NCBI GenBank assembly: GCA_964415615.1
Contig: CAYQAW010000002.1
Coordinates: 1,897-65,896, forward strand
Source of the DNA: an uncultured Gammaproteobacteria bacterium
Lineage (GTDB): Bacteria > Patescibacteriota > Microgenomatia > Daviesbacterales > UBA10151
Length of the DNA stretch: 64,000 bases
Reading direction: 5' to 3'
Within the stretch, counting starts at the first letter, position 1. Each line of letters begins with the position of its first letter. Position numbers and translations under genes: made by a program. This document shows positions 14,568 to 63,876 of the stretch, one piece after another. The notes beneath the pieces were generated by a model. That model was not told where the DNA came from. It made no database searches and saw only the letters and a program-made list of their open reading frames with translations.

Positions 14568-15290
14568 GTGGAATTTTCTTATTCTGTCCGGAAAATATAT
14601 GAAGATGATTTTCTTCTTGTAATTGATAAACCTCCTGGTTTGGTGGTAGACCCTGCCCAGATAGATTTTAATATAAATTTACCCAGAGGGGGGATAGTTC
14701 ACAGGTTAGACAAGGATACCTCAGGAATACTGCTTTTAGCCAAGACCCAGCAAGCCTTAGACTCTCTGCAGCATCAATTCAAGGAAAGACTGATTAAAAA
14801 AGAATATCTGGCTTTAGTTCATGGGACTATTACAAAAAGTGGCGAAGTGGTCGGTAGTATTGGTAGGAATCCAGGTGATAGGGAAAAGTTCATAGTTCTT
14901 CCAGGTGGAAAAGAGGCTATAACAGAATATCAGCCAGAAGGAAATTTACAATTTTCAATTTTAAATTTTAAATCAATTTTCAATGAATTAAATAAAATAC
15001 AAATGAGAAAGTTGGAGAGAATGCATTACAATCAGTTTACTTTACTTAGATGTTTGCCTAAGACTGGACGGACACATCAAATTAGGGTACATTTAAAGCA
15101 TATAAACCATCCAATAGTTGCTGATGAAAAGTATGGAGGCAGAAAGGTCTGCAGACTGGATAAAAGATGGTGTCCTAGGATGTTTTTGCATGCTGCAAAA
15201 ATTGGTTTTAATCATCCAGCAACAGGAGAATGGATGGAGCTGGAGAGTAAGTTGCCTGAGGATCTGAGAAATGTATTGAGAGTGTTTTAA
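14568..15290 (+). CDS. RluA-family pseudouridine synthase.
   Basis: Catalytic motif in the context HRLDKDTSGILLLAKT. Conserved context VIDKPPG. Confidence 0.8.
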   Translation: MEFSYSVRKIYEDDFLLVIDKPPGLVVDPAQIDFNINLPRGGIVHRLDKDTSGILLLAKTQQALDSLQHQFKERLIKKEYLALVHGTITKSGEVVGSIGRNPGDREKFIVLPGGKEAITEYQPEGNLQFSILNFKSIFNELNKIQMRKLERMHYNQFTLLRCLPKTGRTHQIRVHLKHINHPIVADEKYGGRKVCRLDKRWCPRMFLHAAKIGFNHPATGEWMELESKLPEDLRNVLRVF

Positions 15291-17681: not shown

Positions 17682-18843
17682 ATTTAGAATTCTACATAAA
17701 GATGGGAAGGCTAGGGTGGGAAAATTAGAAACCCCGCATGGGATAATAGAAACCCCTAGTTTTAATCCTGTTGGTACTCAGGCTACAGTAAAAGCTTTAT
17801 CTCCCAGGGATTTGAAAGAAATTGGTGTCCAGATAGTTTTGGCAAATACTTATCATTTGATGTTAAGACCTGGAGTAGATTTAATAGCAAAATTTGGAGG
17901 CCTGCATAAATTTATGGGTTGGGATGGTCCTATTATGACAGATTCTGGAGGTTTTCAGGTATTTTCTTTGGGAATAGCTTTGGAGCATGGAGCCAGTAAA
18001 GTATTGAAAGCAATTGACAATGGACAATGGACAATTGACAATGAAAAACAGAGACCCCGTTTAAACAAAATCACAGAAGAAGGGGTAACTTTTCAATCCC
18101 ATTTGGATGGCTCAAAACATATTCTAACTCCAGAAAATTCTATAGAAATTCAACACAAATTAGGGGCAGATTTGATTGTGGCTTTTGATGATCATGAATC
18201 TTCAAAACATACTAAAGCAGAGATGCAAAAATCTTTGGATTTAACAGAAAAATGGGGTTTAAAAAGCCTGCAAGAGTTGAAAAAATTAAAAAGCAAACAA
18301 CTGATGTATGGGGTAATCCATGGTGGTACTCATAAAGATTTAAGAATAAAATCTGCCAGATTTACTGATGATAATTTTGATGCTATAGCCATAGGAGGTA
18401 TTTATGGAGACAAAAAAACTCTTTGTCAGATTATTGATTGGAGTTTGGAAGAAGTTTCAGAGGATAAACCAAGGCATTTGTTGGGTATTGGAGAGGTGGA
18501 AGATTTGTTTAACGGAGTAGAAAGAGGGATAGACTTTTTTGATTGTGTAGCGCCCACCAGGCGGGCCAGAAACGGCTCGTTATATATTTCGCCTTTCTCA
18601 ATACTTAGTATCAGCCAAAGCAGATTTATTTCAGATAAAAAACCCATTGACCCAAGGTGTTCTTGTTATACTTGCGCAAATTTTTCCAGAAGCTATCTGC
18701 GTCATCTTTATATGGCAAAAGAGATTTTGTATCACAATTTAGCAACTTATCACAATATTTATTTTATAACCAATTTAATGAAAAAAATGAGAGAGGCAAT
18801 TAAAGAGGGAAGACTGAATAAATTTAAATCTTCCCTCTTTTAA
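17674..18843 (+). CDS. tgt: Queuine tRNA-ribosyltransferase (tRNA-guanine transglycosylase).
   Basis: N-terminal context ETPHGIIETP. A conserved context DSGGFQ. C-terminal zinc site CSCYTC-X-H. Confidence 0.9.
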   Translation: MVKFRILHKDGKARVGKLETPHGIIETPSFNPVGTQATVKALSPRDLKEIGVQIVLANTYHLMLRPGVDLIAKFGGLHKFMGWDGPIMTDSGGFQVFSLGIALEHGASKVLKAIDNGQWTIDNEKQRPRLNKITEEGVTFQSHLDGSKHILTPENSIEIQHKLGADLIVAFDDHESSKHTKAEMQKSLDLTEKWGLKSLQELKKLKSKQLMYGVIHGGTHKDLRIKSARFTDDNFDAIAIGGIYGDKKTLCQIIDWSLEEVSEDKPRHLLGIGEVEDLFNGVERGIDFFDCVAPTRRARNGSLYISPFSILSISQSRFISDKKPIDPRCSCYTCANFSRSYLRHLYMAKEILYHNLATYHNIYFITNLMKKMREAIKEGRLNKFKSSLF

Positions 18844-22590: not shown

Positions 22591-23352
22591 ATGTCCGGGC
22601 ATTCTAAATGGTCAACAATAAAGCGACAAAAAGGTGTAGCAGATATCAAACGTGGGCAAACCTTCACTAAGCTTGCTAATGCTATTACTATTGCCACTAA
22701 ACTTGGTTCCTCAGGGGATCCAGAAGCAAATCCCAGGCTCAGGGCAGTTTTAGAAGAAGCCAAAACTGTTAATGTGCCCAAAGAAAATGTTCAGAGAGCA
22801 ATTGATAGAGGTTTAGGTAAACTGCCTGGACAGACTTTAGAAGAGGTAATTTATGAAGGTTTTGGTCCTGCAAAGGTTGCCTTTCTGATAGAAGGAGTGA
22901 CAGATAATAAAATGAGAACTACTCAGGAAATTAAAAATATTTTTGAAAGGGACGGAGGGCACATGGCAGGACAGGGAAGTGTAGCTTATATGTTTGAGAG
23001 ATGTGGGGAAATCAAAGTTCAAAGTGCAAAGTTAAAAGTTAAAAGTGAAGAAGAAGAAACCTTAGAATTAATTGATTTAGGAGCAAAAGATATAGAGAGT
23101 TTTGAAGAAGATGGCATACGAAAATATTTAGTATATACAGAAAGCTCAGAATTGAGTACTATGGGTAATAAAATTACTCAGGCTGGTTTTGGAGTGGAGT
23201 CGCAAGAGTTGATGTTTAAACCAAACATATTAGTTTCTATAAATGATTCAGAGTCAGCTAAAAAAGTGTTGGAGTTTGCTAGAAGATTAGAGGATTTGGA
23301 CGATGTGCAAAAAGTGTATGCCAATTTTGATATAGATGAGAAATTAATATAG
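22591..23352 (+). CDS. yebC: YebC/PmpR-family transcriptional regulator.
   Basis: Canonical N-terminus MSGHSKWSTIKRQKG. Confidence 0.9.
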   Translation: MSGHSKWSTIKRQKGVADIKRGQTFTKLANAITIATKLGSSGDPEANPRLRAVLEEAKTVNVPKENVQRAIDRGLGKLPGQTLEEVIYEGFGPAKVAFLIEGVTDNKMRTTQEIKNIFERDGGHMAGQGSVAYMFERCGEIKVQSAKLKVKSEEEETLELIDLGAKDIESFEEDGIRKYLVYTESSELSTMGNKITQAGFGVESQELMFKPNILVSINDSESAKKVLEFARRLEDLDDVQKVYANFDIDEKLI

Positions 23353-23354
23353 CC

Positions 23355-23423
23355 TTCAGTCATCAGTCTTCAGCTTTCAGACTTTTCTGAATTGTCTGAT
23401 GACTGATAGCTGACAGCTGACGA
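23355..23423. repeat. Heptamer-built imperfect inverted repeat (CAGTCAT/CAGTCTT... | ...CTGATGA/CTGATAG/CTGACAG/CTGACGA) forming a long hairpin between yebC and ruvC.
   Basis: The left arm AGTCATCAGTCTTCAGCTTTCAGAC and right arm GTCTGATGACTGATAGCTGACAGCTGACGACT surround the loop TTTTCTGAATT. The same architecture occurs at 57722-57795. Confidence 0.5.
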
Positions 23424-23425
23424 CT

Positions 23426-23959
23426 ATGATTATATTAGGAATTGATCCTGGAACTGCTACTACTGGTTACGGAGTTATCAAAATACCTGATGATATTTTG
23501 GGAAGAGAGTTTGATTATGATATCGAACTGATTACCTATGGAAATATCAGCACACCTAAAGAGAAATTGATGCAGGACAGATTAGGTATGATTTATAGAG
23601 AACTTACTGATGTAATTGGAAAGTATAAGCCTGATCAGATGGTTTGTGAAATGTTATTTTTTGGGGCAAATACCAGAACAGCTATCATGGTGGGTCAGGC
23701 TAGGGGGGTTATAATGTTGACCGCTTCCCAGAACAGGCTTCCATTTCAGGATTATACAGGTTTGCAGGTAAAACTGATGGTGGCTGGATCAGGCAGGGCG
23801 GATAAAAATCAGGTGCATGAAGGAGTCAGGAAGTTTTTAGGCGCTAATGGCAGGAAAAGGAATAAGCTTAAAGTAAATTGGAAAGGTGGGCATCTGGATG
23901 ATGCGACAGATGCCTTAGCTATAGCTATTTGTCATGTGTTAAAATTGGCTGCGAAATAA
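23426..23959 (+). CDS. ruvC: Crossover junction endodeoxyribonuclease RuvC.
   Basis: N-terminal context MIILGIDPGTATTGYGVI. Acidic catalytic residues in conserved positions. Confidence 0.9.
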   Translation: MIILGIDPGTATTGYGVIKIPDDILGREFDYDIELITYGNISTPKEKLMQDRLGMIYRELTDVIGKYKPDQMVCEMLFFGANTRTAIMVGQARGVIMLTASQNRLPFQDYTGLQVKLMVAGSGRADKNQVHEGVRKFLGANGRKRNKLKVNWKGGHLDDATDALAIAICHVLKLAAK

Positions 23960-24746: not shown

Positions 24747-25150
24747 CGTGAAAAAGGGGGAATATTTCGTGAAAAGAGTAGATGATATAGTATGGTATAG
24801 TTATAGGCATGAAGATATAAAACTATAGGATTAATTACGCTCAGTATTGGCATACATTGTGGATAAGTGCTAATTCTTCATACAATACCCGAAGGTACGC
24901 ACCGTCTGGTGCATACCAAAGTCACCATAGAGGAGAAGCACGCTGCATTGGCAGCATTTCGAGCTTACAAACTCTCGCTTCTCTTTTAGAAGAATGTTAG
25001 AATTCCCTTATCTGATGTCGCACAATGTTGGAATTTGGAATCTTGGCAGAGGAGACCTCATTTGGCTTGCTGGTTAAAATAATAAATTTAAAGAGCTAGG
25101 GTTAAAAAAGTCTTATGGTATATATTTTTGTGTTATTCCCATCCATAATT

Positions 25151-25235
25151 AGTTTATAGTTTATAGTTTATAGTTTATAGTTTATAGTTTATAGTTTTTA
25201 GTTTATTGTTTATATCTTAGGTTTGGGTTTATAGA
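25151..25235. repeat. Tandem 8-mer repeat (TTTATAGT, about 6 copies) with degenerate copies continuing downstream.
   Basis: Seen directly (agtttatagtttatagtttatag...). Not CRISPR-like: the unit is too short and there are no spacers. Confidence 0.7.
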
Positions 25236-25548
25236 ACAACCTAAACATTGGATGAGGAAATATAGCTCCCATCCCCCTGCAAGCCGTTTTTAGGCCCTTT
25301 ACGGGCTTCGTGCCTAAATAGCCTCAGAAGGTATAACAAGTCCAATTGTGAGTGTTATTTACAGGAAAAAAGAGGCTGGATGAGACTTGCACTCATCATG
25401 CCTAGCAAGAAATGCCTTCATAGTGTTAATAGTTTCACTTCGTAAGGATTCACCCACTGGTAATGATTTAACATTACTTCAACCCCTTAAATATTATATA
25501 GCTTATTGTTAATTTCATGCTTGACAATGTCTGCTTAGCCTTGGTATT

Positions 25549-26559
25549 ATGAGTATAATCAACCTAACGCTCATAATGTTAAGTTCAACCACTTCGTCCA
25601 AAAAGAAAATATCTTTACCTCTGTTTGACGAGTTTATGCTGCACCTGCAGATAAATAACTACTCTACTGAGACAATTTATAATTATGAACGGGATCTTCT
25701 CACATTTACCTATTTTCTTGAAAAAGAAATGCAAAAAGATTTTGATCAAATAGGTAAGTCAGATATAGAACATTATAAAGCTTATCTTCTGTCTACTGAC
25801 CGTAAAACTGCAATTTCAGAGGAGGATGCTTTAATTAAGTTGCAGAGTGGCTCTATGAATAGATTACTCTCCTCTCTTAGGAGTTATCTGAAGTTTCTTA
25901 TCTTTCAAGATTACAAGATTCCTATCCAGCCAGAACATATTAGAATGGTGAGAAAAGAAAATAAACACTACAAAGTAGCTGAGCTTCAAGAATTAACTTC
26001 CCTGATTGAGTCACCATCTGTTTTAGAAAAAGATCCTATTGTGGGGTCTCGGAACCGCGCTATGCTAGAAGTGCTTTTTGCAACAGGTATGAGAATTTCT
26101 GAACTTCTTTCCTTAAACAGAAGAGATATTGATCAAACAGGGAAGATTTTTATTATGGGTAAAGGCAAGAAGGAACGTTTTGTTTATCTTACAGAAAGAG
26201 CCAAGTCGTTGATTGACATGTATCTTTTACTGCGGAAGGATAATTTACCCGCACTATTTGTGCCTCAGAAGGGCAAAAGAATGGGAAAAAAAGATTGTCG
26301 TATCTCCCCTAACTATTTGCAGTTCAAGATTAAAAGTTATAGGGAAAAATTGGGAATTATTGTACCTACAAGCGCTCATTCACTTAGACATGGTTTTGCT
26401 ACATATTTGGCTGAGGAAGGGGCTTCCCCTGCTGCAATTCAGATTCTACTTGGTCATGAATCACTTAATACTACTACCAGATATGTAAATGCTTCAGATA
26501 AATTTGCTCAGGAAAGCCATAGGAAATATCACCCCTTATCTGAAGCAAATGACAAGTGA
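25549..26559 (+). CDS. Tyrosine site-specific recombinase (XerC/XerD/phage-integrase family), with an N-terminal core-binding (SAM-like) domain.
   Basis: The R..H..R...Y catalytic region is in the context HSLRHGFATYLAEEGASPAAIQILLGHESLNTTTRYV. A possible alternative start lies upstream. Confidence 0.8.
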   Translation: MSIINLTLIMLSSTTSSKKKISLPLFDEFMLHLQINNYSTETIYNYERDLLTFTYFLEKEMQKDFDQIGKSDIEHYKAYLLSTDRKTAISEEDALIKLQSGSMNRLLSSLRSYLKFLIFQDYKIPIQPEHIRMVRKENKHYKVAELQELTSLIESPSVLEKDPIVGSRNRAMLEVLFATGMRISELLSLNRRDIDQTGKIFIMGKGKKERFVYLTERAKSLIDMYLLLRKDNLPALFVPQKGKRMGKKDCRISPNYLQFKIKSYREKLGIIVPTSAHSLRHGFATYLAEEGASPAAIQILLGHESLNTTTRYVNASDKFAQESHRKYHPLSEANDK

Positions 26560-38950: not shown

Positions 38951-41497
38951 CTATGTTTTTTCTTTTGATGCTACTACTGTTGCTGCTGCTACTTTTTCTC
39001 CGGGTCTCACTCTCATTAAAATTACTCCCTGAGTCTGGCGTTGCAGTGTTGGTACTTCTTCGAGGTTCATTTTGATAAGCTGCCCCTTGGTAGAAGTTAA
39101 TACCAAAGTATCCATAGTTTCATTAATTGCCTGAGCTGTCACAATTGGTCCAGTTTTGGCTGTAACCTGTGCTGCTTTCACACCCTGTCCCCCTCTTCCC
39201 TGCTTATTCCAGGCTGAGAAAGGTGTTTTTTTACCTAACCCATTCTCCATAATTACCAGTAATTTGTCTTCATTGTTTGCAACAAGACTTAAAGAAACTA
39301 CCTCATCACCTTTTCCTAACCTTATCCCTCTAACACCAGAAGTATCACGGTGAGTTGGTTTGACTTGAGATTCTGAAAAACGGATTGATTTACCACTTCT
39401 TGCCACAATAATTAAATCGTCTTTGCCACCCGTTGCAGCCACCCAGCCAAGTTCGTCGTCTGGGTCTAATTTAATTGCCACCAAACCGCTTTTTCTGATA
39501 TTGGCGTATTCTGCAAGAGACGTTTTTTTGACAGTGCCTTTTTTGGTACACATAAAGAAAAACTGAGCGCTTTCACCTTTTTGGCGGGTAGTTAAAACTG
39601 CCGTCACTTTTTCTCCCTGTTCAACATTGATTAAGTTGACAATTGCCTGCCCTTTGGCAGCTCTTTGTGTTTCTGGAATTTCCCAAACTTTAATTTGAAA
39701 GACCCTGCCTTTGTCTGTAAAGAATAGAATGCTGTCATGAGTTTGAGTGTAGAAAATATGAGAGACAGCATCAGTTTCTTTGGTAGAAATACCCATTACT
39801 CCCTTGCCTCCTCTGGCTTGAGTCCTAAAAGACATTGGAGCTTGGCGTTTGACATATCCACCTTCAGTAATGGTGGCAATTGTTACTTCATTTGGTACCA
39901 GATCTTCTTCAGAAAACTCTCCTACTTTTTGTTTATAGACCCGGGTTTTTCTGTCGTCTCCATATCTTTCTTTAATTTTGCTAAGTTCCTCTTTGATAAC
40001 TTTTAAGACTTTTTCAGGATGGGTAAGTAAATCTTCCAAATAAGCAATTGTCTCGCGTATCATTGCCAGTTCATCTTCAATTTTTTGACGTTCTAGAGCT
40101 GCTAGTTTTCGCAGTTGCATATCCAAAATAGCCACAGCTTGAATTTCAGTGAACCTAAATTTAGCCATCAGATTGCTTCTGGCAGCATCTGCATCTTTAC
40201 TCTTTTTAATTGTTTCAATAACTGCATCAATTGTATCAACAGCAATTTTTAAGCCTTCCAGGATATGCTCTCTGGCTTTCGCCTCAGCCAACTCAAATTC
40301 TGATCTTTTCCTAACAACTGTTTGCCTGTGATGAATAAATTCTTCTAAGATCCGTTTTAAAGTGAGTAAGTGTGGAACTCCATCTGATAAAGCCACCAAG
40401 TTAACATTGAAAACAGACTGCATGTAAGTGTGCTTATAAAGGTTGTTTAAAAGTGATTGAGGTTTGGCATCCCGTTTTAAATCAAAAACAATTCTGACCA
40501 TCTGTTTGCGGTCAGATTCATCCCGTAAATCTGCAATTCCTTCAATCTTTTTATCTTTTACTAAATCTGCAATTCTAGCAATAAGGGTAGCTTTATTAAC
40601 TTGGTATGGCAGTTCTGAAACAATAATCTGCATTTTGCCTTGGGGGGTTTCATCAATTTCTGCTTTTGCTCTCATGATTATTCTGCTCTTTCCTGTGGCA
40701 TATGCTGCCAAAATTTCTGTTTGATCATAAATAGAAGCGCCTGTGGGAAAATCCGGGCCTTTAATAAATTGCAGGAGATCTTCTACAGTAGCTTCAGATG
40801 AAAAGCTATCAGTTTTCAGTACCGCTTCGCTCTCAGCTGTCAGACTTTCTTGTTTTTCATCTGACGACTGACGACTGATGACTGATGACTGCTTTGTAGG
40901 GTGATCTATCATGTATACGAGAGCATCACAAACCTCCCCTAAATTATGAGGTGGGATTTGTGTAGCCATACCAACAGCAATACCAGAGGCGCCATTTAAA
41001 AGCAGGTTAGGTATAACTGATGGCAGCAGTATAGGTTCTTGGGTAGTACCAGAATAGTTATCAATGAAGGATACGGTGTCTTTATTTATATCCCGTAGTA
41101 ATTCATCAGCAATAGCTGATAGTCTAGCCTCTGTATAACGCATTGCCGCAGGACTGTCTCCATCTATAGACCCATAGTTACCCTGTCCGTCCACTAACAT
41201 ATATCTCATAGAAAAGTTTTGAGCCATTCTAACCATAGCCTCATATACTGGGGCATCACCATGAGGGTGGAAGTTTTTCAATACTTCTCCAACAACAGCT
41301 GCGCTTTTTTGGTAGCGGGAGGTATGATGTAAACCTTGCTCATGCATGGCAAAGATGATTCTTCGCTGGACTGGTTTCAGACCGTCTCTAACATCAGGTA
41401 AGGCGCGGGAGACAATAACAGACATGGCATAGTCCAAATAGGACTTTTGCATTTCTTCTACAATAGGCGCTGGTTGTACTTTTCCAATGTTTGACAT
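38951..41497 (-). CDS. gyrA: DNA gyrase subunit A.
   Basis: N-terminal context [32 protein letters not shown]. Active-site Tyr region. C-terminal beta-pinwheel repeats. The start is probably the internal Met (MSNIGKV...) rather than the ORF-track start at 41539. It carries an insertion of about 35 aa before the GPDFPTGA context. Confidence 0.9.
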
Positions 41498-47111: not shown

Positions 47112-48461
47112 TTAATTTATAAATACTTTTTCGACTGCGCTGTTAAATTTCCTTCCCCTATCAAATTCATTTTGGAACAAATTAAAAGAGGTAGCTGCTG
47201 GAGAAAATAGTATCATATCTTCTGGTTGTGCTATTTGTCTTACATCTGTTAGAAGTTTTTCTAAGTTATTGTAAGTTCCTGCGATTTTGTCTGATAGCTG
47301 ATAGCTGATAGCTGATAGCTTTTTTTTTATTTCTTCTGTAGAATCTCCTTCTAGGAAAAAAACTTTTTTAACTGATTTGCTTATTTTCTTTGCATACTCT
47401 GTATAATCCATTCCTTTATTCATCCCCCCACAAATAAGAATAATATTTAGCTTCCCACTTCCGATGTGGGAACGTAAAGCTTTTATGGCTTGAAGTCCTG
47501 ATTCAGGAGAGGTAGCAGCAGTATCATTGTAGATTTTTACCCCATTCCACTCCTTGATAAGTTCCATTCTGAAAGGTATCCCTTTAAATTCAGAAAGAGA
47601 TTTGAGTAATAGGTCTGAATTAATATCAAAGATTTTTCCTAGATTATAGACTGCAGAAATATTTTCTAAATTATGTTCTCCCAAAAGATTAGGATGAAAA
47701 TCTGTTGGTAAATCATTTTTGGAATAGAAAATTATTTGAGCCTTGAAATCTTTTAGAAAATTAGATTGAGTAGTAATTGGGTCGTCTTTTTTTAAGAACA
47801 AAAAGTCTTCTTCTTTTTGATACTTCCCAATTACCTTTTTTGCTTGAATATATTCATCTATTGATTTGTAGTAATTGAGATGGTCTGGGGTAATATTTGT
47901 TATTACTGCCCAGTGGGGAGAAACTTTATGAGCATCAAAAGCTTCCAGTTGAAAAGAAGAAATTTCTAAAACCACTAAAGTATCATTATTAACAAAGGGA
48001 ATAGTATCTAAAACACTTTTGCCAATATTGCCAGCAAAGACTACCCTTCGACTTCGCTCAGGGCCTTCGGCTTTCAAAACTTCATAAATTAAAGAAGAGG
48101 TTGTTGATTTTCCTTTGGTTCCAGTTACTCCAATAATTTGAGATGGTAAAACAGATTGTAAGAATATACCCATATCTGTTTCAACTTTTTTGTTATTTTT
48201 CAGAGCATATTCAATATAAGAATTTCCTGGTTTTACTGCTGGGTTTTTAATAATTAAATCAGCCCAATTAATATCTTCATTTTTATGTTCTCCTAATGTA
48301 TAGGAAATATTTGGGAAATCTCTGAGTTGATCTAAAGAGGGTTGTAATGCTTCTTTGGTTTTTAAATCAGTAACTTTAACCTGGTCTCCTTTTTGGGCAA
48401 AGAATTTAGCAGAGCCCACCCCTCCTTCATTCAAGCCTAAACCAAAGATTAAAACGTTCAT
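47112..48461 (-). CDS. murD: UDP-N-acetylmuramoylalanine--D-glutamate ligase.
   Basis: MurD-type Rossmann N-terminus. ATP-binding context GVTGTKGKSTTSSLI. Contains an in-frame (CTGATAG)4 repeat encoding LSAISYQLS. Confidence 0.85.
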   Translation of the reverse strand: MNVLIFGLGLNEGGVGSAKFFAQKGDQVKVTDLKTKEALQPSLDQLRDFPNISYTLGEHKNEDINWADLIIKNPAVKPGNSYIEYALKNNKKVETDMGIFLQSVLPSQIIGVTGTKGKSTTSSLIYEVLKAEGPERSRRVVFAGNIGKSVLDTIPFVNNDTLVVLEISSFQLEAFDAHKVSPHWAVITNITPDHLNYYKSIDEYIQAKKVIGKYQKEEDFLFLKKDDPITTQSNFLKDFKAQIIFYSKNDLPTDFHPNLLGEHNLENISAVYNLGKIFDINSDLLLKSLSEFKGIPFRMELIKEWNGVKIYNDTAATSPESGLQAIKALRSHIGSGKLNIILICGGMNKGMDYTEYAKKISKSVKKVFFLEGDSTEEIKKKLSAISYQLSDKIAGTYNNLEKLLTDVRQIAQPEDMILFSPAATSFNLFQNEFDRGRKFNSAVEKVFIN

Positions 48462-52519: not shown

Positions 52520-53149
52520 TCATTTCTTAACAGGCATTACCAGCATTAAATATTCTAAAATGGCCCTCATATTTACATTTTGTTTTGCCCATTGCTCTGC
52601 CTGCAGAAGCTTACTAAGAAAATCCGCATTAGCTGGTAATTTTTTATGAAAAAAACTAGTTAAGGAATATAAAAAATCTTCTCTATCTTTTAATTTTTCT
52701 ACATATTCAAATCTTTGTTCAATTGTGGCCTCTAATAACTTTTTTATGTCTTCTTCATGACTTTTCACTTTTAACTTTTCACTTTTAACTTTAATAATCT
52801 GGCATCTTGATAAAATAGTTGGTAGAAGTCTGGTGTCTGAATTGCTGCACATAATAAAAACAGCTTCTCTTGGTAGTTCCTCTAGGGTTTTTAGAAGGGC
52901 ATTTTGAGCTTCCGGGGTTAAATTCCCTGCTTCCTCTATAATTACTATCCTGCCTTTTGCAGAATAGGGTTTTAAGGAAAAATGGTCTATTATTTTCCTG
53001 GCTTCTGCAATTCCTAGTTTACTGTCTTGTTCGAAGTATAAAACATCAGGATGGTTTACATTCCCACTTCCGATGTGGGAAGCTAATAACTTTTTTGTCT
53101 CCTCTACCCTCTTGTTAATATTTGTAGAAATATAGAGCCTTGCAATCAC
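52520..53149 (-). CDS. Short DNA polymerase III delta-prime-like (HolB-type) clamp-loader subunit.
   Basis: A conserved context GRIVIIEEAGNLTPEAQNALLKTLEE. Sensor-1 context TILSRCQII. The N-terminal P-loop region is short or absent. Contains an in-frame (AAAGTTAAAAGTGAA)-type repeat encoding KLKVKSEKLKVKS. Confidence 0.55.
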   Translation of the reverse strand: MIARLYISTNINKRVEETKKLLASHIGSGNVNHPDVLYFEQDSKLGIAEARKIIDHFSLKPYSAKGRIVIIEEAGNLTPEAQNALLKTLEELPREAVFIMCSNSDTRLLPTILSRCQIIKVKSEKLKVKSHEEDIKKLLEATIEQRFEYVEKLKDREDFLYSLTSFFHKKLPANADFLSKLLQAEQWAKQNVNMRAILEYLMLVMPVKK

Positions 53150-57149: not shown

Positions 57150-57722
57150 GTGAGAAAATTGAAAAAATCTGCTCAATCCCGATTTAATCGGGATCAAGTT
57201 CATAAAGGTTTTACCTTAGTTGAACTTTTGGTTGTTATTGCAATTATTGCCATTTTGGCAGCAGTTGTAGTCCTGATAATTAATCCATTAGAACTCACCC
57301 GTAGAGGTAGGGATGCAGCAAGACTTAGTGATCTTGCAAATTTGCAGCAAGCTATTAATGTAGCTGTTCAAGAAGCAACTGCTTCTTCTGTTGCTATATT
57401 GTGTAATTCTGACAGCGCAACATCATGCAATGGTTCAAGTAATGTTGGTTCCCGTTCCTCAGATGGTACAGGCTGGGTGAAAGTTAATCTATCTGCTCAG
57501 AAGAGTGTTTCTGTGCCAACTTTACCTGTTGATCCACTCAATAATGCAGCAAATCACTATACTTATTGTTCAGATGGTGATGCCTGGGAAATTAATACTG
57601 CTTTGGAATCAACCCAGCAATCTGGCAAGATGTTAACAGATGGTGGAGAAGATGACGCTGTTTACGAGGTTGGTTCTAAGTTGAGTCTTATTAAATCGTC
57701 TGGGGGGACTTGTACATATTAA
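57150..57722 (+). CDS. Prepilin-type pilin (N-terminal cleavage/methylation domain).
   Basis: A context KGFTLVELLVVIAIIAILAAV (G/FTLxE class III signal). C-terminal Cys pair. Confidence 0.75.
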   Translation: MRKLKKSAQSRFNRDQVHKGFTLVELLVVIAIIAILAAVVVLIINPLELTRRGRDAARLSDLANLQQAINVAVQEATASSVAILCNSDSATSCNGSSNVGSRSSDGTGWVKVNLSAQKSVSVPTLPVDPLNNAANHYTYCSDGDAWEINTALESTQQSGKMLTDGGEDDAVYEVGSKLSLIKSSGGTCTY

Positions 57723-57795
57723 AGTAGTCGTCAGTCGTCAGCTCTCAGCTGTCAGACTTATTATATAATTGTCTGAAGACTGATGGCTGATAGCT
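57722..57795. repeat. Second copy of the heptamer-built hairpin element: left arm AGTCGTCAGTCGTCAGCTCTCAGCTGTCAGAC, loop TTATTATATAATT, right arm GTCTGAAGACTGATGGCTGATAGCT.
   Basis: Same architecture as 23355-23423. Located between the pilin gene and pilD. Confidence 0.5.
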
Positions 57796-58704
57796 ATGAT
57801 AATAATAGGTTTTGTTTTTGGAATGGTTTTAGGGAGTTTTGCGAAAGCGCTAGCTGATAGAAGTTTAAGTAAAAAGTCTTTTTGGGGAAGGTCGTATTGT
57901 CTGGATTGTAAACACAAGCTGGCATGGTGCGACCTTTTTCCTATTTTCTCCTACATAATCCTTCAAGGTAAATGCAGGTATTGCAGAAAAAAAATTCCTC
58001 TGGAATACCCAATTGCTGAAATTATTCTGGGAATATTGGTGGGATTTCTCTTTTGGCAAAGCTTCAAAAATTTTCAATTTACAATTTTCAATTTTCATTC
58101 AATTTTCAATTTACAATTTTCAATTTTCATTTTTGAATTAGTATATAAAACTTTCTTTATATTAATCTTGGCTGTTTTATTTATAACTGATTTAAAAAAG
58201 ATGTTTATTCCAGACAGGATTATAATTCCTTCTATAATTATTGGAGTCATTGGGATTACAGCTGTTACCATATATAAGATAGGTCATCTTTATTATTATC
58301 TTTCTCAAAGTGCTGTAGGCAGATTATTACTCCCTCCCCATAGTGAATATTTTCAAAGGCATGCTTTGATTACTGCTCAGCCATTTTTGCTATCTATTTT
58401 AATGGGACTAGCAATTGGAGGTTTTTTCTTAAGTTTAATAATTATTACCAGAGGTAAAGGTATGGGAGGTGGAGATGTTAAGTTAGGAGCCTTTATAGGG
58501 CTGATGTTGGGCTTCCCTAATGCTTTAGCTGCTTTGGTGCTGTCATTTTTATCAGGAGCTGTATTTTCAGTAGGTCTGATACTCCTGGGTAAAAAGCATT
58601 TTGGTCAAACAATCCCCTTTGGTCCATTTTTGGTATTAGGAAGTTTAATTGTGCTTTATTGGGGCAATCAGATTATGGACTGGTATTTAAAACTTGGGTC
58701 TTGA
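57796..58704 (+). CDS. pilD: Prepilin peptidase PilD (A24 family).
   Basis: N-terminal zinc-binding CLDC...CRYC. Two catalytic Asp-containing loops. About 8 TM helices. Contains an in-frame CAATTTTCAATTT-type tandem repeat (58075-58135). Confidence 0.85.
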   Translation: MIIIGFVFGMVLGSFAKALADRSLSKKSFWGRSYCLDCKHKLAWCDLFPIFSYIILQGKCRYCRKKIPLEYPIAEIILGILVGFLFWQSFKNFQFTIFNFHSIFNLQFSIFIFELVYKTFFILILAVLFITDLKKMFIPDRIIIPSIIIGVIGITAVTIYKIGHLYYYLSQSAVGRLLLPPHSEYFQRHALITAQPFLLSILMGLAIGGFFLSLIIITRGKGMGGGDVKLGAFIGLMLGFPNALAALVLSFLSGAVFSVGLILLGKKHFGQTIPFGPFLVLGSLIVLYWGNQIMDWYLKLGS

Positions 58705-63004: not shown

Positions 63005-63147
63005 ATTATTATTTTATCATAAATGAAGCTCTACTTGAAGGTACTAGTAGTTTAATGTAATAATTTAAATTAATGCCCATTCCACATTTAACAATTGACA
63101 ATGAACATTTAACAGTTAACAAAAAATTGTTAAATGATAAATGTAAA

Positions 63148-63876
63148 ATGTTCAATGCCTTTGGTTTTACCTTAATTGAGTTAATGGTAACGGTAGCTAT
63201 AATAGCTATTCTATCTGGAATTGGATATAGCACTTATTCTTCAATACAGGCAAATGCCAGGGATGCTAAAAGAAAAGCAGATGTAGATGCTATAGCCAAA
63301 GTTTTAGAGGATAAATATAACTCTAGCACGGGGTTGTATCCTTCGTATAGTGAGGTATCTGATAGAGATTTTACTTCAGGCGCAAAGCCTAAGCAATTTG
63401 ATGGTACAGATTATACTCCCCAGTTTGGATCTGGTAGTCAGGCTTACAAATCTTTTGTAATTTGTACTACTCAATTGGAGAAGTCTACCCAACCCTATTG
63501 CAAATATTCAGCTAATGGTAGTTCTAGTTCTATTGGTAGCTTGCCGACCACCACAAAATGTTCTAAATTTAATAATTTAATAGGCGGTCAATCTCAGTCA
63601 TGCAGTTATTTAACATATGGATCATTCTCAACTAACATAACCCCTGATAGTACAATTAGAATTGACTGTAACGATATTAGAGATAACGATATTGGAGATG
63701 CTGCGAATATAATTTGTTCTTCTAATAAGAGGTGTGCGTATGCGCCTTACCCTTCTCAGCAATTACCCTGGTATAAAGAGGATGGTAGCGAAGGCGGGAC
63801 AGTGGTATTGGCTATCGCGAATTGTTCCATTTATAATAACAATTTTTTTTCATCTGTGAATGTAATTTTGAAATGA
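63148..63876 (+). CDS. Prepilin-type pilin. The ORF-track start at 63073 gives an implausibly long leader, so the probable start is the MFNAFGFTLIEL Met.
   Basis: A context FGFTLIELMVTVAIIAIL. Multiple Cys residues in the C-terminal half. Confidence 0.65.
   Translation: MFNAFGFTLIELMVTVAIIAILSGIGYSTYSSIQANARDAKRKADVDAIAKVLEDKYNSSTGLYPSYSEVSDRDFTSGAKPKQFDGTDYTPQFGSGSQAYKSFVICTTQLEKSTQPYCKYSANGSSSSIGSLPTTTKCSKFNNLIGGQSQSCSYLTYGSFSTNITPDSTIRIDCNDIRDNDIGDAANIICSSNKRCAYAPYPSQQLPWYKEDGSEGGTVVLAIANCSIYNNNFFSSVNVILK

Follow-up and report, generated by a model that had tools for sequence, protein, structure and literature searches.

How does a seven-nucleotide repeat come to fill the spacers between genes and, in the same genome, to lie in frame within essential genes? 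The question is raised by a stretch of 64,000 nucleotides (henceforth the window, G+C 36%), whose GyrA and RuvC homologues lead to Candidatus Daviesbacteria (Microgenomates, candidate phyla radiation) and whose RuvC has an identical protein on a public 123-kb contig. A sequence-only reading had described heptamer-built hairpins in the yebC-ruvC and pilin-pilD spacers and runs of the same heptamers within gyrA and murD, translated as SSVISRQSS and LSAISYQLS, and had taken them for a lineage-specific simple-sequence element, mobile or arising by slippage. The positions and both peptides are correct, the copies do lie in frame within essential genes, and the description as a simple-sequence heptamer element is supported. 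Three or more CTGA cores at a period of 7 occur at only four places in the window (23353-23423, 40861-40888, 47291-47318 and 57728-57793), and the four-unit pattern TCAGNNNTCAGNNNTCAGNNNTCAGAC has four matches there, compared with 0.00 in 100 dinucleotide-preserving shuffles. Pattern scans for CTGA-type heptamers recovered these four sites and further copies in relatives and in metagenomic and viral contigs. The same inserts are present in independent assemblies, and for this reason we rejected an assembly artefact.

Three of the four sites are inverted pairs, while the murD site is a single arm. The two intergenic elements share one layout, 5'-AG(NNNTCAG)4AC, an A+T-rich loop of 11–13 nt and GT(CTGANNN)3-4CT-3', and the arms of the window elements hold four units each, except for one with three. 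Four was also the maximum for CTGA heptamer arms in 1.27 Mb of Daviesbacteria DNA.

Coordinates of the heptamer elements, their parts and the genes around them in the window. Gene assignments are from Pfam; unit sequences of the gyrA and murD copies are given in the sense of the gene.
Feature	Positions	Strand	Sequence or size	Basis
YebC	22591-23352			Pfam
Element 1 (yebC/ruvC), 5' arm	23351-23382	+	AG + CCTTCAG TCATCAG TCTTCAG CTTTCAG + AC	
Element 1, loop	23383-23393	+	TTTTCTGAATT	
Element 1, 3' arm	23394-23425	+	GT + CTGATGA CTGATAG CTGACAG CTGACGA + CT	
RuvC	23426-23959			Pfam
GyrA	38951-41497	minus		Pfam
gyrA in-frame insert	40796-40897	minus	102 nt / 34 aa	
gyrA insert, 5' arm	40859-40891	minus	CAGTCAT x2, CAGTCGT x2, CAGAT	
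gyrA insert, 3' arm	40805-40845	minus	GT CTGACAG CTGAGAG, patch, CTGAAAA CTGATAG C	
MurD	47112-48461	minus		Pfam
murD half-element	47289-47321	minus	AAG (CTATCAG)x4 AC, encodes KLSAISYQLSD	
Pilin	57150-57722			Pfam
Element 2 (pilin/pilD), 5' arm	57726-57757	+	AG + TCGTCAG TCGTCAG CTCTCAG CTGTCAG + AC	
Element 2, loop	57758-57770	+	TTATTATATAATT	
Element 2, 3' arm (three units)	57771-57795	+	GT + CTGAAGA CTGATGG CTGATAG + CT	
PilD (prepilin peptidase)	57796-58704			Pfam

Each intergenic copy occupies the whole of a 73-nt spacer between stop codon and ATG. At yebC/ruvC the first AG of the element completes the yebC stop codon TAG (23350-23352), its 3' arm carries TGA in all three frames, and the element directly abuts the ruvC ATG. 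Element 2 begins 3 nt past the pilin TAA (57720-57722) and likewise reaches the base adjoining the pilD ATG. At both junctions the CTGA array itself ends 2 nt before the ATG. Folded as RNA, both copies form the long imperfect hairpins anticipated by the sequence-only reading, at -31.8 kcal/mol (z -4.4) for yebC-ruvC and -30.8 kcal/mol (z -4.2) for pilin-pilD, none of 200 shuffles being as stable in either case. The starts of ruvC (23426-23439) and pilD (57796-57809) are themselves near-identical, ATGATTATATTAGG (MIILG) versus ATGATAATAATAGG (MIIIG); ATGATAA is also a unit of another hairpin at 63135, which may be chance or a preferred junction sequence.

Comparison with relatives, where filled and empty junctions both occur, identifies the elements as insertions. 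In five of them (L177-L180 and L020, four with RuvC at 86–93% identity and the fifth at 73%) there is no spacer at all, the yebC and ruvC reading frames sharing 4 nt (ATGA), and in three more distant relatives (L021, L026, L037) the distance from pilin to pilD is 0–6 nt. The yebC/ruvC hairpin is found again in L018, the empty junctions lying phylogenetically between this genome and that of the window. The two copies match at 61 of 75 positions only when one of them is inverted and at 49 of 75 otherwise, the baseline being 46–48, and element 1 resembles the inverted L018 copy more than it does element 2 of its own genome. Two insertions in opposite directions, an inversion in place, or a recombinational exchange of alleles are possible origins of the inverted match. 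Within the window genome the heptamer copies are identical at 56 of 77 positions, over a baseline of about 48, and at the junctions compared no stage intermediate between the 4-nt overlap and the 70–75-nt element was seen.

Whole elements of 70–75 nt standing where relatives have a 4-nt overlap, without intermediates, and one junction filled in two non-sister lineages in opposite orientations at 81% identity, are what a non-autonomous transposon of the MITE or REPIN type might leave behind. It would be mobilised in trans by a transposase encoded elsewhere, for which an IS200/IS605-type or REP-associated tyrosine transposase (acting on hairpins) or an IS630-type enzyme would be the candidates. 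The architecture is defined too, with ends reading TAG...CTA; in element 2 and L018 the end is GTAG, in element 1 ATAG, and the resemblance to a REP tag could equally be a CAG-to-TAG variant of the first unit. REPs, REPINs and the GTAG- or CGTC-tagged palindromes are found chiefly a short way past the end of coding regions, where the neighbouring genes are co-directional or convergent, and their inverted dimers form longer hairpins (PMC3733652, PMC3116915); some REPs are known from inside genes, chiefly those of replication and repair (PMC3733652). We nonetheless regard a transposon as improbable. REP copies are near-identical within a genome, have a unique stem and are tied to a tyrosine transposase, whereas the copies in the window differ from one another in unit order and loop and have arms periodic at 7 nt. 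Inverted ends, the other mark of a MITE, are trivially present in such repeats, and no target-site duplication can be read from filled versus empty sites (a TA duplication at yebC/ruvC was considered and rejected as inconsistent across the window, L018 and gyrA). The coding copies described below weigh against it as well, in that a complete element has stops in all frames and could not have entered gyrA or gyrB intact, and that murD looks like an in-place expansion or contraction between one and four units.

The suggestion that the junction hairpins might act as terminators was not upheld: neither is followed by a T-run, no terminator-like site was called, and the ATG follows the stem; lacking a U-tract, they are not canonical terminators. 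At the gathering score, Rfam 15 gave no matches in the whole window. Measured against the outer cores of integron attC sites (RYYYAAC ... GTTRRRY), the ends read AGNNNTCAG ... CTGANNNCT and GTTRRRY is absent. Coupling of the two genes is probably preserved at both junctions. Because stop and start codons lie where the stem closes, ribosomes translating the upstream gene would melt it, and the downstream gene would still be expressed although a hairpin stands in place of the stop/start overlap.

The copy within gyrA had been described as a run of heptamers inside an insertion of about 35 aa. Run and insertion are both present, but the copy is in truth a full two-armed hairpin (40805-40891), albeit a weaker one (z -2.3), and the insertion measures 34 aa. 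HP and (D/E)ATVEDL flank it, and its loop is missing from all solved GyrA structures matched, which align on both sides and skip the insert. The segment from PPHN to GPDFPT is 27 aa long in 32 of 120 homologues and 30–83 aa long, with very different sequences, in the others, which amounts to 3–56 extra residues. Among the insert-free homologues are the three nearest (5–8% divergence), and the nearest of all, 91% identical by BLASTP and 5% divergent outside the insert, is without exactly the 102 nt. The heptamer hairpin recurs in gyrA of L001, L009 and L010. In an average-linkage GyrA tree built from alignments whose insert was masked, a method that makes counts of gain and loss rough, 30 insert-free taxa need at least 20 state changes versus 26.5 for random labels, and the six taxa with a heptamer-type insert are all separate. 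Going by these alignments, gain and loss of the element appear to have been frequent.

In murD the element is a single arm without an inverted partner and forms no hairpin (z -0.7). The closest MurD, that of L002, is 24 nt (8 aa) shorter and has a single unit, TTATCAGAT (TATCAG), in place of the window's (CTATCAG)4; in most relatives the protein is shorter by 5 aa here. Half-elements occur at two MurD sites in L009, L012, L024 and L030, and L012 also has a full hairpin in GyrB. The comparison of gyrA and murD orthologues thus bears out the expectation that heptamer inserts would be present in some relatives and absent from others, and elements have, judging from the aligned loci, been gained or lost at orthologous sites. 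They occupy two kinds of place: tight gene junctions, from stop to ATG, and variable surface loops of GyrA, GyrB and MurD.

Orientation matters inside genes. The TCAG strand is open in all frames and the CTGA strand has TGA in all three, because 7 and 3 share no factor and three consecutive CTGANNN units therefore place a TGA in every frame. Single arms within genes are always in the TCAG sense. The five full hairpins in coding sequence come from gyrA in four genomes (one event) and gyrB of L012 (a second event), and in all five the CTGA arm opens with two units whose TGAs fall in frames +1 and +2, continues with a non-heptamer patch and closes with two more units (+1, +2), the patch sitting where an in-frame CTGA unit would be. 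For the window the patch is GAGCGAAGCGGTA (40820-40832); it takes in the last bases of the second unit as well and stands in for the unit whose TGA would be in frame. A complete element could hence not have entered gyrA or gyrB intact, unless the patch was already present. The coding copies have been shaped by selection for an open frame, through the TCAG orientation alone or through replacement of the in-frame CTGA unit, and to judge from this pattern, which such selection predicts, they must be translated. The proposal that three 7-nt units preserve the frame and so make the repeats tolerable therefore does not hold: the arrays have four units. Tolerance is set instead by orientation, by an insert length divisible by three (102 nt in gyrA, a net 24 nt in murD) and by replacement of the in-frame unit.

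The palindromic elements of Rickettsia, which Ogata and co-workers are said to have described in 2000, are reportedly about 100 nt long, form hairpins, lie in frame in genes including essential ones, and are translated as surface segments. The gyrA insert is like them in being palindromic, in frame and absent from the nearest homologues and from solved structures. They differ in forming families of similar copies without tandem heptamers and in their host; the likeness drawn here is one of mode.

The same loops hold other inserts. Palindromic ones were seen in GyrA (L004, L011, L017, L043), GyrB (L009, L043) and the second MurD site (L009, L012, L018); an example from another Daviesbacteria genome reads GTCATTGCGAGCGAAGCGAAGCAATC...CCTCGCAATGAC and encodes VIASEAKQS...PRND. 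These loops of GyrA, GyrB and MurD appear to act as landing sites for hairpin-forming repeats in general. In the window, murD at 48045-48062 (minus) has a 12-nt in-frame insertion relative to its closest homologue within CCTGAGCGAAGTCGAAGG (encoding PERSRR), with a motif, GAGCGAAG, common to this stretch and the gyrA patch; the matching MurD site of L030 holds a heptamer half-element instead. Seven GyrA homologues from Daviesbacteria or Microgenomates (P0032, P0063, P0064, P0072, P0074, P0078 and P0097) reach 1263–1346 aa and carry intein-type domains (PF14528, PF14890).

The element is not specific to this lineage, as had been supposed. The consensus CTGAYNR covers its units and equally the TAACTGA repeats known from Beggiatoaceae, cyanobacteria and Bacteroidetes (PMC4679880), and like hairpins were found in metagenomic and viral contigs of 31–77% GC. 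A scan of viral contigs for half-elements found 103 stretches where we would expect about 2 by chance (a rough estimate of our own), and a scan of metagenomes for full hairpins gave at least 120 matches. Among the metagenome matches listed, the contigs span 37–77% G+C, arms have mostly 3–5 units, 116 of 120 hairpins fall outside long ORFs (118 when ORFs were called a second time), many directly abut the stop codon of a neighbouring gene, and spacers between divergent genes are the rarest setting (12/83). The unit consensus of the hairpins in viral contigs is YNRTCAG, which is CTGAYNR on the other strand. At the variable positions the two arms of the metagenome hairpins listed are complementary in 58% of cases versus 31% with shuffled partners, and hairpins of the low-GC, Daviesbacteria-like subset have variable triplets that for the most part do not match between the arms. 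Compensatory change can be followed in few orthologous DNA copies, and those seen pair mainly through their cores.

The inverted arrangement has a strict polarity. We examined 3.9 Mb of viral contigs, of which 2.9 Mb had been fetched by unrelated control patterns. Five-unit heptamer arrays with the cores TCAG, GTCA, GCTA and ATGC each had at least 120 matches in viral contigs. All 48 unique hairpins have the TCAG arm first and the CTGA arm second, and none has the opposite order, which would fold equally well. An inverted partner accompanies 16% of TCAG arrays compared with 3% for the three control cores (p = 5e-8). Daviesbacteria also have heptamer hairpins with other cores (L026 5470-5569, L050 18813-18975 and L056 2275-2405), CAGAATG...ATTCTGA and (NNTCTAA)n...(TTAGANN)n, whose arm order is comparable, the stop-containing strand being on the 3' side.

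This polarity puts the CTGA array on the outward-facing side of the hairpin, and it invites a functional reading, in which a protein or the ribosome binds the CTGA array or the hairpin and controls translation of ruvC and pilD, the coding copies being by-products. In favour of such a regulatory junction module are also the arrays that end 2 nt before the ATG at both junctions, as in MacGregor 2015 (PMC4679880), the stem of about -31 kcal/mol, which has stop and start codons at its base and stands in place of a 4-nt translational-coupling overlap, and the ends TAG...CTA, which often provide the stop codon of the flanking gene (element 1, L018, L290, L237, L300). We give it a minor share of the probability, more than any other single rival, because the same genes are expressed without the element in close relatives, ruvC and pilD have no functional link, the arms of Daviesbacteria-type copies show little compensatory change, and the metagenome hairpins listed adjoin gene ends and not starts, least often in divergent spacers. 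The missing Shine-Dalgarno motif, which we had considered as a sign of function, carries no weight and is uninformative, as the genome hardly uses the motif and no more than 7 of the window's 62 genes show as much as a weak match. Many of its genes have a TAnAAT-like box 7–12 nt before the ATG, which suggests leaderless mRNAs or very short leaders.

The closest precedent is the family of TAACTGA direct repeats in Beggiatoaceae, cyanobacteria and Bacteroidetes, arrays of 2–6 units that are mostly forward and end about 1 nt before start codons without a Shine-Dalgarno; no frame of the forward strand is free of stops, copies that lie reversed within ORFs encode LSVISYQ, and for Beggiatoaceae a role in translation control by a bound protein or the ribosome was proposed (MacGregor 2015, PMC4679880). 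The window repeats share the CTGA core, the 7-nt unit and the range of units per array (four, within 2–6), and their units TGACTGA, TAGCTGA, CGACTGA and CAGCTGA differ from TAACTGA by one or two bases. Here too, forward CTGA arrays end within a few nt of the start codon and copies within ORFs are reverse (TCAG), with LSVISYQ-like peptides (LSAISYQLS in murD, SSVISRQSS in gyrA, and in relatives as well). Unlike in Beggiatoaceae, the exact TAACTGA unit is absent from the window arrays, units are heterogeneous within an array, the host belongs to a candidate phylum, and copies lie in gyrA, gyrB and murD. The window arrays are moreover paired as inverted hairpins, whereas only 1 of 170 sets was inverted in a Beggiatoa-family genome (PMC4679880). 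More distant are the GGGAATC repeats of Xanthomonas and GGGGAYT repeats of Nostoc, intergenic heptamer arrays with some inverted pairs, which differ in being G-rich and quadruplex-forming, in having no CTGA core and in not having been reported from coding sequence; Rehm et al. found heptamer repeats over-represented in bacteria, and the Xanthomonas arrays to have mostly four units (PMC4692102).

Heptamers are common in this DNA in general. Period 7 is the second commonest tandem-repeat period in 1.27 Mb of Daviesbacteria DNA, the commonest in hairpin-carrying contigs, and accounts for 15 of 53 tandem-repeat rows of the window; the many unrelated heptamer arrays suggest a general bias towards 7-nt slippage. 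An A+T-rich heptamer hairpin at 63085-63157 (left arm CATTTAA/CAATTGA/CAGTTAA, right arm TTGTTAA/ATGATAA/ATGTAAA, arms 79% complementary) closely precedes what is probably the true start, MFNAFGFTLIELM, of a pilin-like gene (ORF 63073-63876). Within coding sequence, (AATTTTC)n occurs in pilD at 58069-58139 and in ORF 14568-15290 at 14943-14989; in pilD some ten units between the two peptidase A24 domains encode NFQFTIFNFHSIFNLQFSIFIF, and a slip of one unit would shift the frame. Other arrays in ORFs are at 23012-23046 (yebC), 52760-52792 and 18011-18043: TCAAAGT/AAAGTTA units encode KVQSAKLKVKS and KVKSEKLKVKS, and CAATKGA units encode AIDNGQWTIDNE, one unit having an in-frame TGG where the others have TGA. 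In YebC the array exceeds that of three relatives by 3 aa, and L179 has RVKSQESRVKS there. The spacer at 24853-25549, part of an 800-nt gene-free stretch upstream of ORF 25549-26559, holds (TAGTTTA)x9 at 25150-25214 and a G+C-rich stem, GGCCCTTTACGGGCTTCGTGCC, for which Rfam had no match. The ORF takes the position of a Phage_integrase-family gene in relatives.

Such abundance could mean that the CTGA arrays are microsatellites pure and simple, grown from a chance seed by 7-nt slippage, the second arm arising by fold-back copying, with no transfer between sites. The empty murD allele, which keeps exactly one in-phase unit (TATCAG), fits this, as do the unrelated heptamer arrays in the genome, also inside ORFs, and the general over-representation of heptamers in many bacteria (PMC4692102). 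It is the least probable of the explanations we weighed. A seed model fails at yebC/ruvC, where the native ATGA of the overlap is out of phase with the array, and it does not account for one CTGAYNR consensus recurring across 31–77% GC, for inverted partners common to TCAG arrays only, or for an absolute polarity where slippage with fold-back copying should yield both orders. By weight, a regulatory role, then a transposase-driven route, then pure growth in place remain as rivals.

The explanation that we prefer, and hold to be somewhat likelier true than false, is that these are the hairpin form of a CTGA-core family (CTGAYNR), whose arrays turn over by slippage, whose elements are gained and lost whole, whose coding copies are tolerated passengers, and whose junction copies keep genes coupled. 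Two inverted arrays of about four units each around an A+T-rich loop make a hairpin of 70–100 nt, resembling REPs, MITEs and the Rickettsia palindromic elements in form. The arrays would turn over in place by 7-nt replication slippage, whole elements would be added or removed through copying or deletion events, and the protein inserts would be Ser/Gln-rich loop passengers that the enzymes tolerate. As between "mobile" and "slippage", the data favour a combination, with units turning over in place and whole elements being gained. Several observations sit uneasily with this family reading. Filled and empty sites show no readable target-site duplication; an intact four-unit CTGA arm would cut short any gene that it entered; copies within the genome are barely more alike than their cores require, unlike those of a young transposon family; the L018 copy, matching only when inverted, is not what simple descent would predict from the sequences; the arm triplets of Daviesbacteria-type copies are mostly non-complementary, so that selection for pairing looks weak; and slippage with fold-back copying leaves the strict polarity unexplained.

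A further idea, bolder and rather doubtful, takes the polarity at face value: hairpins with TAG...CTA ends would be portable gene-junction elements that cross phyla, made or kept by a putative sequence-specific machinery, for which a heptamer-binding protein, a nuclease or a recombinase would be candidates. If so, each element would bring with it a stop codon, a stem and, close to the start, an array with stops in all frames, tightly packed genes without Shine-Dalgarno motifs would stay translationally coupled, and the copies in gyrA, gyrB and murD would have landed in the wrong place and survived there.

The family of TAACTGA-type repeats, described yet unexplained, is extended by these data to the candidate phyla radiation, and it takes the form of polarity-constrained hairpins, too, in genomes that differ widely in base composition. 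That 7-nt repeats persist in essential genes, though a slip of one unit would be lethal, implies a strong generating force. Removal of the in-frame TGA unit is a signature of selection that can be used to separate translated inserts from artefacts, and annotators should expect repeat-derived segments in the variable loops of GyrA, GyrB and MurD in such lineages. The absolute order, TCAG then CTGA, is a testable clue to a mechanism that existing models leave unexplained.
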